The position numbers were made by a program, and so were the translations under genes. From a virus (taxonomy: Duplodnaviria; Caudoviricetes), in IMG/VR virus record IMGVR_UViG_2657245668_000002, positions 1-64,000 of that record: a stretch of DNA of 64,000 nt; one strand, written 5' to 3'. Each line of letters begins with the position of its first letter. The stretch's first letter is position 1. The notes beneath the pieces were generated by a model. It was not told the DNA's origin. It saw only the letters and a program-made list of their open reading frames with translations, and did no database searches. Positions 24,714 through 33,004 of the stretch are shown piece by piece.

Positions 24714-24737
24714 GTCGGTTAAGAGCGAGGAGCAGAA
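24714..24737 (+). repeat. Cassette-boundary palindrome, type B
   Basis: GTCGGTT-AA-GAGCGA-GG-AGCAGAA. Confidence 0.7.
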
Positions 24738-24781
24738 ACCGTGTCTATGAGTAATGAATTCAACATTAATGATGTGTAGTT

Positions 24782-25642
24782 TTACAATCTATCACGAAGG
24801 AATTTCACCCCAAAAAAATGGCCTTTGTTCTTCTCTAGTATGCCGAGGTTTAAATCGTGAAAGTACCACATTAGCTTCGTTTTTTTTGGTTGTTCTAGTG
24901 ATGGGATTTGTAATTTCCCATCTTTATATAATTGAGATATAAAATGGCTATCATTAATTTATGGGTCTATAGAGTTAATTGTATCTTCGCAATGTATTGC
25001 ATAGCCAAATATTTCCAGTGTATGACCAGTGCATGTTACAGGATTTAGCATATATGGTTGGTTAGGCGGTATATCTCTTTCAAGATACATACGGCGTATG
25101 TGAAAAAACTTAAGCGCATCCTCGCTGCCGTGGTAAAATACACTGTGAGGGGCGATAGCAACTATGGTGAAAGTATCTTTTGAAACATCAGCGAAGATAA
25201 GATAGTTGCTTCGCCCTTTCGGGTTTTTGTTATTTCTTGGTGCAAAATGAAAGTGATACAGTCCTTCTCTGAGGACAAAAGAATCTATATCTTTCCCTTT
25301 GCTTTTCAAAGAAGCACCAGGCAAAACAACACCATGCGTTCTAACTTGTTCAGATAGATATTGGTTTAGATCATCACCGTTAATGACTTTATTTAGAAAT
25401 CCTTTTATGTCAGGGTATTTGTTTATGAAAATATTGAAGTCTATCCCCATAGGAAAGACCTTAATGGTTCGTTTTCTTACCGGGACAGTTCTGATCTTCC
25501 ATGTGATATAATTGGAAATGATTACTCTTGTCGGCATCTTTTCGAGTTCTGCTATTGCCATAGGAGTATTAGGAACCTTCGGTAATTCCTTAATCATCAT
25601 TTGTCTGAAACGCTCTATACTAGCTGAATATTCGTCACTCAT
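24782..25642 (-). pseudogene. Uncharacterised cargo gene interrupted by one TAA (24959-24961)
   Basis: Reading through the stop gives 58 more sense codons (INDSHFISQLYK...WYFHDLNLGILEK..RDRL*); GDDLNQYLS and GLYHFHF motifs. Confidence 0.6.
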
Positions 25643-25771
25643 ATCTTCTGTTTCGCTGCATTACAAATGGCTCACTGGTATCGGTATCAACATAAAACCA
25701 TATGAGACAATTTTCAATTCATAAACGCCTGACCTGCTCATCGTTGATTAGCCTATTTTATTCTTAGCTAG

Positions 25772-25845
25772 GTCCGTTTTTGGCACAAAGTCGCCGGCAC
25801 ATTGTACACCAGATATCGACAGGCAGCTTCGAGCGAGGAGCGGAC
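25772..25845 (+). repeat. Paired cassette-boundary palindromes A+B
   Basis: GTCCGTT-TT-TGGCAC-AA-AGTCGCC, 26 nt, GGCAGCT-TC-GAGCGA-GG-AGCGGAC. Confidence 0.8.
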
Positions 25846-26096
25846 ATAAAACTCTTTTAGTTGCGTGCCATTTTTTGCCGGGTCAGTGCTATTTTTTTTA
25901 CGGAGTCCTATCGGGCCATCAGGCTGCCAATCGTAACATATATACCGTCCCTTCTAGTGAGTTGAATAGTCATATTGAGAGCCAATGCAATATGGCTGAC
26001 CCTTTAAAAAAGCAAAGGTGGAGGGAGACATTTTTTAGAATCTCCCTATATTGCTTTAGGTATTAGCTGTAGAACTTGCTTTAGAAAACCAAGAGA

Positions 26097-30654: not shown

Positions 30655-30718
30655 GGCACTCAGGATCACCGTAACAAACATCCCAATTTTGACTTACTGC
30701 CACCGTCAGCCACTTAAT

Positions 30719-30780
30719 GTCCGCTGTTGGCACTTACCTGCCTCTCAAAAATCTCGGTCTGCTCAGAGCGAGAAACAGAC
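30719..30780 (+). repeat. Paired cassette-boundary palindromes A+B
   Basis: GTCCGCT-GT-TGGCAC-TT-ACCTGCC, 14 nt, GTCTGCT-CA-GAGCGA-GA-AACAGAC. Confidence 0.78.
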
Positions 30781-30859
30781 TTTATTGCCATGCCAAGAAG
30801 GGGCTAGCAGCAACCATTGGTTATGCGATTCGGCCACCAATGCGGCGCTATATTCCCGA

Positions 30860-31075
30860 GTTGTGGGTGAAAATAAAAAGGATATAAGCAATAATCCCTT
30901 TCAAATCGAATGAAAAAACCAGTCAAAACGGGCGTCTAAAGCTGTATGAACAGATTTTACAAAAAGCACAGCGTTGTCCAACATTGCTTTACCCTATTAA
31001 AAGAAAATTGCCGGATCGCCACACGCTCAGAAAAACGGCTTGAGCTATCTAAGCATGCTCTGATTGGACTCCATC
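30860..31075 (+). mobile_element. IS5-family transposase 3' relic
   Basis: FYKKHSVVQHCFTLLKENCRIATRSEK resembles the IS5-type Y..R..VE.CF..LK..RRIATR.EK motif, degenerate. Confidence 0.55.
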
Positions 31076-31174
31076 CGTTTGTTTTTGAAGAAATTGCTAA
31101 GTTAAGAGACGTAGTCTAATCTTTATTGATACAATGGAAGTCGCAATTCACTAACATGAGGTCTGAGTGTATCT

Positions 31175-33004
31175 ATGGGGGCATTTACTGGAGCAGTGTT
31201 AACCTCAGCAGCTAATAATCTCGCAAAAAAAACAATAGAGTCCACTTTTGATTTTTTAGTCAAAAAATACGAGTTAATAGACATACTGAGATTTAAGGAT
31301 CACTACCTAGAGTATTGTGAAAAAAATTTAGAAATAAAAACATTAGTATCTCAAGATAAATCCTTTCACGTTGATGACATTTACATCCCGATCCATATAA
31401 TGCAATCAGGCACTCAGACCAGACAAGAAATAAACGGAATTACTACTTTAGATAATGATAGAGCCATATTGATAAAAGGGTTGGCGGGACAAGGAAAATC
31501 AACGTTATTGCGAAAGCTATTATCTAACAATGCGAAAAGATTTAGCCGACTTCCTGTTTTTTATGAACTTAAAAATTATAATGGTGGAACTTTAGAACTA
31601 TCAATATCAAAATCATTAAGTCATTTTGGAGTCAAAATATCAGAGCATGCACTAAAAAAACTACTTTCAGATAGTAATGTAAAAATATATCTTGATGCGT
31701 TTGATGAGGTTAGACCTGAATTTAGATCTGAACTAACTGATGAAATAAAACGTTTTATTAACTCGTTTAAGTGTCATGTGATTTGTACAAGTAGACCTGA
31801 CACTGAAATAGATGCCTTATCCGAGTTTAGAACGTTTTCAGTATGCGAATTAACTGAGGAGCAAATATTTGGGATTATAAAAAAAACAGCATCTGATCAA
31901 GAAAAATGTAATGAACTATGTGATGCTCTTAGGCGAAGTCCTTTACATACAAACAAAGATTCAATTCTCAAGTCACCTATATTAGTCGTTTTGTTCTGCA
32001 TCAGTTACAACTTAGGCGAAGATATACCAAATACACTGTCACAATTTTATTCAAACATTTTCGATACTGTCTTTCATAGGCATGACAATATAAAAGGAAA
32101 AGTATATAGAGAACGTCACTGGAATGATAACAGACGTATTTATAGAGAGCTTTTCGATTGTTTATGTTTCATTTCTCTAAGAGATGGTCTAAATGGATTC
32201 AGTCATGAGAAACTAGTAAAATTTGTATCAATTTCACTTACGCATATAAATGAAGAGTGCTCCATAGCTGAAAAGGCTGTAAAAGAGTTATCTTCTATTA
32301 CAAATTTAATTATCGAAGATGGATTTAATGAATACCGCTTTGTTCATAAGTCAATTCAAGAATTTTTTGCCGCATCATTTATTACATCATTACAGCATGA
32401 TAAAAAAATATCATTTTATAAAAAATGCTTTAACGATTATCATTTTTACACTACATTTCATAACACCTTATTCTTCCTAGAAGAATTAGATTATTATAAT
32501 TACCATGAGTATGGTTTTATTCCTGCAATAACCAACTTCCTCTCTTTATCTCAAGATATAACCATTGATAATTACACAATTCCCACTTCTGTTAAAGATT
32601 CTTTCTTGAATGATATTTACATTCGCACCAAATACTCTATTTTTAAAGCTGGCACTAGAGAGAGCTATGAATTAGAGAAAACAAATTTCACCTTTGATAT
32701 ATCAGAGTCCTACCCAAGTCTACTTTCGAGTATATTTATATTTTCTCTTGACTTTATAAAAACAGATCTAACTGACAAGGAATTAATAACCCTTACTAAA
32801 AAAAATAAGAATATGTCAGTAAATGGTTGGTGTAAGCTAAGCATTAGGACAATCCTCGAATTTAAAAAGCTGCCTGAAACAGTTGCTTTAGATGCATTAA
32901 AAATAGGCATTGACGTACTTATTAGAAGAAAATTCAATAAAGCAATTGATAAATTAAATAATAGAAGAGAATCATTAAACTCAACTGATTATTTCAACTT
33001 TTAA
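31175..33004 (+). CDS. NACHT NTPase (bacterial NLR-related, probable anti-phage)
   Basis: Walker A GLAGQGKS, Walker B IYLDAFDE, ICTSRP, PILVVL, YRFVHKSIQEFFAA; short N-terminus; AT-rich. Confidence 0.9.
   Translation: MGAFTGAVLTSAANNLAKKTIESTFDFLVKKYELIDILRFKDHYLEYCEKNLEIKTLVSQDKSFHVDDIYIPIHIMQSGTQTRQEINGITTLDNDRAILIKGLAGQGKSTLLRKLLSNNAKRFSRLPVFYELKNYNGGTLELSISKSLSHFGVKISEHALKKLLSDSNVKIYLDAFDEVRPEFRSELTDEIKRFINSFKCHVICTSRPDTEIDALSEFRTFSVCELTEEQIFGIIKKTASDQEKCNELCDALRRSPLHTNKDSILKSPILVVLFCISYNLGEDIPNTLSQFYSNIFDTVFHRHDNIKGKVYRERHWNDNRRIYRELFDCLCFISLRDGLNGFSHEKLVKFVSISLTHINEECSIAEKAVKELSSITNLIIEDGFNEYRFVHKSIQEFFAASFITSLQHDKKISFYKKCFNDYHFYTTFHNTLFFLEELDYYNYHEYGFIPAITNFLSLSQDITIDNYTIPTSVKDSFLNDIYIRTKYSIFKAGTRESYELEKTNFTFDISESYPSLLSSIFIFSLDFIKTDLTDKELITLTKKNKNMSVNGWCKLSIRTILEFKKLPETVALDALKIGIDVLIRRKFNKAIDKLNNRRESLNSTDYFNF

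Follow-up and report, generated by a model that had tools for sequence, protein, structure and literature searches.

Hotspots in phages and their satellites are a main reservoir of anti-phage genes, and their content turns over faster than the backbones in which they lie. Here we describe one such locus in a stretch of 64,000 nucleotides (the window; positions 1 to 64,000 of IMG/VR record IMGVR_UViG_2657245668_000002, a virus of the Caudoviricetes), in which an array of defence genes between positions 24714 and 33004 is punctuated by seven palindromic 24-bp sites of two types, called A (core TGGCAC) and B (core GAGCGA) in an earlier note made from the sequence alone. The closest described counterpart is found in phage P2. 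Inverted repeats around P2 Z/fun, proposed to serve site-specific exchange, are credited to Nilsson, Karlsson and Haggard-Ljungquist (2004, Mol Biol Evol 21:1) in a sentence of a review (PMC8987985), and according to that sentence both the sites and the idea of exchange at Z/fun have been known since 2004. The idea seems to have been little followed up in searchable papers; beyond the review sentence, nothing on these sites was found in the searchable literature, the full texts of Nilsson 2004 and of Odegrip 2006 being outside its scope, and a text search for the motif returned a single paper, which was unrelated.

The P2 repeats and the sites in the window are the same A and B sites in the same relative order, fun(Z) lying between an A site, next to gene G, and a B site, next to the pF promoter (AF063097). 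Arrays of the form B, cargo, AB, cargo, A are present at the G/FI position of other P2-like prophages, the P2-like loci compared being occupied hotspots only. In P2 (locus L249) a partial extra A core of opposite orientation (TGGCACAGAGT ... ACTCTGTGCCA) lies next to the terminal A site, beside gene G at about 2300–2361. The array in the window differs from P2 Z/fun in having an unrelated backbone (the small gene p70 and a giant DarB-like gene, not G/FI), four units of cargo and composite junctions of A, linker and B. Sites of this family occur in at least three other backbones, so genomic position does not define it. What is new here is the four-unit array in a non-P2 backbone, together with an unusually clean core-to-core swap in a sister strain. 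No description of the composite junction with two cores, of an array grammar common to several phage families, of core-precise swaps or of a nested recombinase of 200 amino acids (aa) was found in the searchable literature, with the full text of Nilsson 2004 again outside the scope.

The P2 and P4 hotspots (Rousset et al. 2022, PMC9122126; Moura de Sousa et al. 2026, PMC13586616) hold the same kind of cargo, namely ShosTA (DprA-PRTase), Old, PARIS, Gabija-like and retron/DRT-like systems, and like the arrays they turn over fast among close relatives. The 2026 survey in Nucleic Acids Research covers thousands of P2/P4 elements and, in its discussion, names transposons, homologous recombination and illegitimate recombination as open options for the exchange (PMC13586616). 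The terms 'hairpin', 'palindrom' and 'recombination site' do not occur in the main texts of PMC9122126, PMC13586616 and the iLund4u preprint, the supplements lying outside the scope.

Integrons share with the array one- or few-gene cassettes between imperfect palindromes of inverted 7-bp boxes and a tyrosine recombinase as the likely enzyme. Their attC sites are built from two simple sites of inverted 7-bp boxes, which are imperfect inverted repeats of each other around a variable centre. Defence genes have been reported as integron cargo (bioRxiv 10.1101/2024.07.02.601686). The window, in contrast, contains no IntI, attI or Pc and no RYYYAAC/GTTRRRY consensus, and in the system as a whole the cargo lies in either orientation, each junction has two heterologous cores that are both breakpoints, and the candidate enzyme, at 200 aa, lacks an N-terminal domain. 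The pdif modules of Acinetobacter plasmids consist of XerC/XerD sites in alternating orientation, with an 11-6-11 layout, and use the host Xer enzymes. They resemble the arrays in their discrete gene modules, oppositely oriented sites, 6-bp central region and presence on different replicons. Compared with the consensus of dif and pdif, however, the sites have 24 bp instead of 28, a 7(9)-6-7(9) layout and the arms GTCCGCT/AGCGGAC, and a junction is formed by two sites plus a linker whose place can be taken by a dedicated small recombinase gene.

Repetitive extragenic palindromic (REP) sequences and the bacterial interspersed mosaic elements formed from them are, like the sites, short GC-rich imperfect palindromes that are paired and intergenic. 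REPs are scattered over the chromosome in hundreds of copies, whereas the sites occupy 1–4 places per Escherichia coli genome, lie in cargo arrays only and are associated with a tyrosine recombinase, not with a Y1 HUH enzyme (RAYT, the REP-associated tyrosine transposase). The earlier note had held the sites to be none of canonical attC, dif or REP sites, and the consensus, the arms and size and the copy number all agree with it. Recombinase-mediated cassette exchange (RMCE) with heterospecific lox or FRT sites uses the same arms with incompatible cores, so that a segment is swapped and not excised; RMCE is a designed use of Cre or Flp, whereas the arrangement described here is natural and its reaction is proposed by analogy.

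Seven sites and the element they belong to

Reading of the region and a script run over the whole contig (84,787 bp) both place seven sites of 7-2-6-2-7 geometry on the + strand at the coordinates of the earlier note, with A sites starting at 25772, 27940 and 30719 and B sites at 24714, 25822, 27982 and 30757. The two cores are exact in all seven sites, and each arm agrees with GTCCGCT/AGCGGAC at 4–7 of its 7 positions. The note had every A followed by a B after 14–26 nt, and the gaps measure 26, 18 and 14 nt; it had also seen no further site in the window, which now extends to the rest of the contig, where the script found none by the same criteria. The GCC/GGC change that it described in the inner arms of the copy at 25772 is present as read. 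The features of the array are as follows.

24714–24737, + strand: lone B site (GTCGGTT AA GAGCGA GG AGCAGAA), the left end of the array, 43 nt past the stop of p70
24738–25771, − strand: cassette 1, with a PD-T4-7-like open reading frame (ORF) at 24959–25642 (PADLOC PD-T4-7, E = 1.7e-7, partial profile match)
25772–25845, + strand: junction 1, A site 25772–25795, 26-nt linker, B site 25822–25845 (nhmmer E = 2e-7)
26097–27704, − strand: cassette 2, caspase-like (Peptidase_C14) protein of 535 aa (Pfam PF00656, E = 9.4e-18)
27940–28005, + strand: junction 2, A site 27940–27963, 18-nt linker (the modal length), B site 27982–28005 (nhmmer E = 4.3e-11)
28190–30461, − strand: cassette 3, ShosT at 28190–29473 (PADLOC, 958 bits) and ShosA at 29466–30461 (PADLOC, 634 bits)
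30719–30780, + strand: junction 3, A site 30719–30742, 14-nt linker, B site 30757–30780 (nhmmer E = 7e-8)
31175–33004, + strand: unit 4, NACHT/STAND NTPase of 609 aa (Pfam NACHT, E = 1.3e-7)

The seven sites are real and far above chance. A pattern containing the B core gave 4 matches against 0.00 expected and one containing the A core gave 3 against 0.09, and none of 100 shuffles reached these numbers in either case; the arms alone, with up to 3 mismatches allowed, make a weak pattern, with 5 matches where 1.44 are expected, a count that 4 of 100 shuffles attain. The nhmmer values in the list were obtained with a profile built from unrelated copies. Pfam, PADLOC and reading of the frames confirm the cargo named in the earlier note (an interrupted gene, a caspase, ShosTA and a NACHT protein), and 'interrupted' is a fair description of the first gene, since the frame of the PD-T4-7-like ORF stays open for 58 more codons beyond one in-frame stop. 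From core to core the ShosTA cassette spans 27991–30733. The NACHT gene lies on the strand opposite to that of the other three units, and neither the script scan of the contig nor the profile finds an A site after it.

In order to follow the sites beyond the window, a 20-base pattern was made from its invariant positions and searched against viral contigs. It matched 114 of them, where chance would give a handful, and the copies elsewhere are far better conserved than those of the window itself. Their consensus is GTCCGCT-YY-TGGCAC-RR-AGCGGAC, an 18-nt linker and GTCCGCT-NN-GAGCGA-NN-AGCGGAC, the linker having 18 nt in 73 of 105 distinct copies. With one copy as the query, 1620 of 5426 complete E. 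coli genomes are matched at 1–4 places each (2157 chromosomal places and 11 on plasmids), mostly in unannotated intergenic DNA. A cross-species scan with one genome per species, in which the pattern left the A arms unconstrained, gave at least 120 loci. Among the matches listed, the A arms fit the consensus in 91 of 120 genome loci, the named records that were checked belong to many genera of Enterobacterales, the exceptions being one Aeromonas and one Pseudidiomarina, and unrelated phyla fall among the 29 matches that have poor arms and are at chance level. Judged by these sequence matches, A, about 18 nt and B form a conserved element that is spread widely in the prophages, islands and some plasmids of Enterobacterales.

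The arrays built from this element have a common grammar, which reads B, cargo, A-linker-B, cargo, and so on to a final A. All 116 consecutive site pairs detected with the profile in the 79 loci having at least two sites are co-oriented, and the transitions are AB-AB (48), AB-A (40), B-AB (23), A-AB (4) and AB-unclassified (1), so that the first element of an array is B or AB and the last is A or AB. On its + strand the window has the order B, AB, AB, AB, which agrees with this grammar except for a missing terminal A. The 120 intervals between sites (median 1.3 kb, range 294–9439 bp) hold 166 distinct ORFs in 147 families, of which 85 are oriented against the sites and 81 with them; in the window three units lie on the − strand and one on the + strand. 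The cargo is rich in defence genes, and its matches in PADLOC and Pfam include Old, AriA, GajA, PtuA, DRT with SLATT, DarT with Macro, TIR, AbiV and RES. Arrays are found in at least four backbones, among them the G/FI slot of P2-like phages ('moron position 2', Z/fun), a repressor/activator context (23 loci) and positions next to a lambda-type integrase or next to a DNA invertase. The earlier note had considered that the motif might be dispersed independently of cargo; instead, it lies in co-oriented arrays with diverse cargo. At one locus (L026, 4054–4279) a group II intron (Rfam RF02005, 185 bits) adjoins an array bounded by the element.

Homology breakpoints at the site cores

When the array is compared with its relatives, the homology breakpoints fall on the 6-bp cores. 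In sister strain X12, one 17.5-kb contig with 0 ambiguous letters matches the window up to position 24728, where the first B core ends, and again from 30728, where the third A core begins, and has 5214 other bases in place of what lies between. Window 24729–30727, comprising three cassettes, is replaced from core to core, and 0 letters at the joint fit both sides. A viral locus with an unrelated backbone (L315, flanked by a phrog_1599 gene and, at the opposite end, by UmuC/UmuD) shares window 27982–30733 at 97% over 2752 bp; there the dinucleotide before GAGCGA differs already, and identity is lost right after TGGCAC. The ShosTA cassette is flanked in L315 by a lone B and a lone A site, and in the window by composite junctions. 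Contigs of three other organisms (X15, X16 and X17) match only 27991–30723/4, starting at the first base of the B core of junction 2, and continue in unlike DNA; uncovered stretches in X12 and X15–X17 were not counted as absence, and the comparison draws on these four runs and makes no use of X11, X13, X14 and X18–X20, which have small shares or come from metagenomes. The ShosTA cassette is thereby known from four backgrounds besides the window, starting at GAGCGA in each and ending at TGGCAC or just ahead of it. The earlier note had asked whether breakpoints of cargo gain and loss map to the cores, and they do so at 24728 and 30728 in X12, from 27991 in X15–X17 and with the end of identity after 30733 in L315. 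This gives nucleotide-level evidence for cassette exchange at two fixed 6-bp cores.

The same is seen at a larger scale. In 24 loci with one left backbone conserved through GAGCGA, at least 12 different sequences follow directly, and identical cargo is also found behind different left contexts. First divergence in 239 left-conserved pairs, which are not independent, the sequences falling into families, lies at position 26 (42 pairs), 57–69 (194) or 125 (3) and never at 27–56 (0). The whole 8.9-kb array of the window is identical in 10 isolates of one organism from at least 7 studies. Beyond 30723, after the A-left arm of ShosTA, the X15, X16 and X17 contigs carry the A core inverted, GTGCCA and not TGGCAC, which suggests that a neighbouring segment was inverted or that the cassette was joined to an oppositely oriented A site.

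A candidate recombinase and the rival explanations

A Phage_integrase domain is present in 2 of 150 cargo ORFs. The one in locus L084 is annotated in RefSeq as 'site-specific integrase' and is a tyrosine recombinase of 200 aa without an N-terminal domain; an intact copy in E. coli Nissle 1917 bears this annotation. This small recombinase was found in 65 related viral loci and in 815 of 5426 E. coli genomes (about 15% of the complete ones), and R, K, H, R, H and Y are conserved in its intact members. One group comprises 13 contexts with at least 74% protein identity. Immediately upstream of the gene, 10 of them have TCGCTC (the B core read on the opposite strand), and all 13 have it with at most one mismatch. 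GTGCCA (the A core read on the opposite strand) is present in 10 of the 13, where it follows a perfect hairpin at 25–27 nt past the stop. Outside the two cores the sequence is variable. From these positions it follows that the recombinase gene takes the place of the 18-nt linker, in the order A core, antisense gene, B core, and the junctions bearing it sit inside co-oriented arrays. The NCBIfam models for XerA/integron integrase and XerC match it at 50.6 and 42.3 bits, far under their cut-offs of 220 and 335, and phmmer found no match among PDB sequences at E <= 0.001. A co-occurring recombinase, which the earlier note had advised to look for, is thus present in other genomes, nested between the A and B cores, and absent from the contig. 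From position and co-conservation we infer that this enzyme and the sites belong together.

Homologues of 57–60% identity in three environmental viral contigs (L270, L271 and L273) have a different perfect hairpin followed by CGGCCA-GA-AGCGGAT; this combination of an enterobacterial-like arm and a variant core hints at co-evolution of enzyme and site. In five P2-like prophages (L261–L264 and L274) a 3'-truncated recombinase (205 of 216 residues matched) lies in the G/FI slot between the terminal A and B sites.

The reading that we favour, with a probability of about 0.6, is that the sites are the borders of a cargo-cassette system, the same as that of the P2 fun(Z) repeats, in which each is a tyrosine-recombinase site and the 200-aa protein is the candidate enzyme. 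That the defence genes lie in exchangeable cassettes bordered by the sites, and that these are built like the sites of a tyrosine recombinase, is supported by the comparisons above, and the central proposal of the earlier note has in this respect held up against the tests that it had named for its own refutation: breakpoints coincide with the sites, the motif lies in arrays with cargo, and, as described below, the sites are not a terminator family. Recombination at them is deduced from these patterns.

A cassette would then begin at the GAGCGA of one B site and end at the TGGCAC of the next A site, and the array of the window would fill the hotspot between p70 and the giant gene with three complete cassettes and a NACHT unit that lost its terminal A. 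The two inverted arms of 7–9 bp would bind a recombinase dimer, and strands would be exchanged within the invariant 6-bp core. With common arms and different, oppositely oriented cores, A would recombine with A only and B with B only, and under this restriction segments from B to A could be inserted or swapped between replicons without self-deletion of the array, in a reaction resembling RMCE. The enzyme would be the 200-aa recombinase consisting of a catalytic domain only; since the contig holds no copy of it, the array would be static unless the enzyme were supplied in trans. More tentatively, and at somewhat less than even odds, A and B may be heterospecific crossover sites of this recombinase, with natural RMCE as the general engine of defence-gene turnover in the hotspots of P2-like and many other enterobacterial prophages, islands and plasmids. 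If the link between enzyme and sites is true, it would explain exchange between unrelated replicons, provide a simple sequence rule by which cargo cassettes can be delimited and unknown defence genes found, and make this a compact natural two-site cassette-exchange system. Such a system may explain how phages trade immunity genes.

Several points weigh against this reading. No recombination event was observed, and the invariance of the cores means that a crossover is not placeable within them. The array is stable in its lineage, as its identity in the 10 isolates shows, and its fourth unit, the NACHT gene, ends at a non-site junction. The sites of the window are degenerate: the inner arms at 25772 and 30719 fit poorly, and two linkers have 26 and 14 nt where 18 is usual. 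No homologue of the small recombinase is present in the 84.8-kb contig, and few of the loci with sites have its gene nearby (4 of 114 viral ones and 5 of 120 listed from genomes), the loci being short and the rest of each genome uncovered. Finally, all 8 of 8 distant homologues (54–63% identity) lack these exact cores.

An unlikely alternative is that the A-linker-B element has another primary role, such as moron insulation, transcript stability or regulator binding, and that cassettes are exchanged by ordinary or phage-encoded homologous recombination through the stretches of 24–66 bp that the sites provide. The conservation of the elements as whole units with a fixed 18-nt linker would suit this explanation, as would the large number of arrays without a recombinase nearby. 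So would the covariation found in a set of 84 distinct 66-nt copies compared with 500 shuffles, a comparison whose numbers are inflated by relatedness. For the two local palindromes the share of paired cells is 80.8%, the shuffles giving 79.4% and none of the 500 attaining the observed value, and the covariation, which comes mainly from the dinucleotides beside the A core (site A columns 8–9 and 16–17), is 0.172 against 0.153 (reached by 1 of 500); in sequence, site A is a 9-6-9 palindrome. One site of the seven, 30757–30780 on the − strand, is terminator-like, but the other six have no T-tail, and the region as a whole has 8 terminator-like features against 5.1 expected. An intrinsic terminator family, which the earlier note had raised against itself, was rejected on this count, and no RNA family matches either: with Rfam 15 no site was matched in window 24000–34000 at E <= 1, and none at the gathering score in six element-bearing loci. 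The G-U-type mismatches in site A have no strand bias, and the near-equal orientation of the cargo (85 against 81) speaks against a transcript-level role tied to it. Homologous exchange is at odds with breakpoints at the core edges where no flank is shared (0 letters in X12, a differing dinucleotide in L315), and six invariant bases with partly similar arms are very short for it.

Two further roles were tried and rejected. ATG, GTG or TTG precedes GAGCGA in many copies, as expected for a translation start at B, but not in all, and no conserved ORF follows; by reading, no TTGC stands at the proper spacing for TGGCAC to form a sigma-54 −24 box.

More doubtful still is the explanation that the junction itself is mobile, as a unit of A core, recombinase gene and B core of which the A-linker-B elements of 48–66 bp are miniature non-autonomous derivatives, the cassettes being no more than the DNA between insertions. 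Three observations favour this explanation. Of the 13 contexts with at least 74% identity, 10 have the two cores as the exact limits of the recombinase unit; inner arms and linker act together as one piece, A-right position 6 tending to agree with B-left position 4; and the empty hotspots of the phage family of the window have no site at all. The inverted, though imperfect, correspondence of A to B and the recombinase gene that may sit between the two also recall an insertion sequence (IS) or a miniature inverted-repeat transposable element (MITE). The arrays, however, end in half-elements (a lone B at the start of 23 loci, a lone A at the end of 38), ShosTA travels with its own B-right and A-left arms, the swap in X12 replaces the segment from B core to A core and not a junction, and no target-site duplications were seen on reading the junctions.

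The label 'integron-like' in the earlier note is apt for a cassette array with tyrosine-recombinase site architecture and fails for the features that define an integron. The note had added that an A+B pair can fold as one long hairpin. The pair is foldable, because all four arms share one consensus, but for the attC-like folded form there is no support from covariation: with the linker stem included, 77.4% of cells are paired and 76.2% in shuffles, 4 of 500 of which attain the observed share, and the covariation score is reached by 92 of 500. For a 4-bp stem proposed within the linker, no more than 66% of cells are paired. A classical integron, an array of attC sites lacking an integrase (CALIN) or a set of Xer/dif-type (pdif) sites for host XerC/XerD is very improbable, because the attC-like geometry, the dif-like 6-bp central region and the weak NCBIfam matches of the small recombinase are set against the lack of an IntI gene in the contig, the rarity of integron motifs near the sites (in 24601–33100, 0 of 9 GTTRRRY and 1 of 13 RYYYAAC motifs lie within 40 nt of one), cargo in both orientations, two invariant cores that are both breakpoints, a hairpin without covariation, and arms and a length (24 bp, not 28) unlike those of dif.

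The hotspot and its surroundings

The relatives of the window were gathered by means of the C-terminus of the giant gene and comprise 51 loci. The features that frame the array are as follows.

23607–24191, + strand: 5'-truncated lambda-type phage integrase of 194 aa, catalytic domain only (Pfam PF00589; phrog_7244 positions 165–262 of 263)
24458–24670, + strand: backbone gene p70 of 70 aa, the conserved left flank of the hotspot, present in 28 related loci
33079–33150, strand not assigned: bidirectional terminator hairpin after the giant gene, the right edge of the backbone, with the homology of relatives resuming at 33079–33101
33151–41511, − strand: giant DarB-like gene of 2786 aa, the conserved right flank of the hotspot (homology to relatives, PHROG matches)

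In these 51 loci the hotspot is framed by p70 and by the 3' end of the giant gene. Relatives have between about 80 bp and about 5 kb separating the two genes, compared with 8.5 kb in the window, and the content varies among close relatives within this phage family. Three relatives have an essentially empty hotspot and neither an A nor a B site, which indicates that the sites arrive with the cargo. In occupied relatives the terminal A site lies about 120 bp beyond the terminator of the giant gene. The stretch of about 70 bp of backbone that bears it there is absent from the window, where homology is back at 33079–33101, and the NACHT unit therefore ends at a non-site junction. None of these 51 loci has the cargo proteins of the window, no relative of the caspase or of the NACHT protein was found in the viral contig collection, and only ShosTA among the four units is traceable individually to other backgrounds. 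Megablast of window 24000–34000 against phages and plasmids gave no matches, and with the ShosTA unit as the query a match of 37 bp was all that the E. coli genomes returned; among deposited phages nothing is closely related to the late region of this phage.

The giant gene matches a DarB-like antirestriction PHROG at its N-terminus and large methyltransferase-type PHROGs at its C-terminus, and in many relatives it forms the very end of the predicted prophage. The 194-aa ORF at 23607–24191 is the sole tyrosine recombinase of the window, and its 5' truncation bears out the earlier statement that no intact recombinase is present. Its relatives are full-length integrases of 371–404 aa, others being cut back to differing degrees; as the 3' part of such an integrase it was rejected as a FimB-like small recombinase or cassette enzyme. 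In window 23125–24450 a tail-sheath-like C-terminal fragment (164 aa) abuts this integrase remnant and is followed by TTTCGATAAA-type repeats; an att-like region also lies to the left of p70. The same junction of sheath fragment and integrase is found in related loci L119, L123 and L158, and from its sequence it looks like a scar of tandem-prophage accretion.

Two ORFs overlap the A+B junctions, at 27701–28018 (− strand, 105 aa) and 30653–30913 (+ strand, 86 aa); they have no family match and are probably not genes. Within the ShosTA cassette, 31–54 bp at window 30611–30664 match the flank of distant ShosTA loci that have no A or B sites, with 93% identity in L316 and 83% in L323, a match that hints at capture of the cassette from a P2 old/tin-type hotspot.

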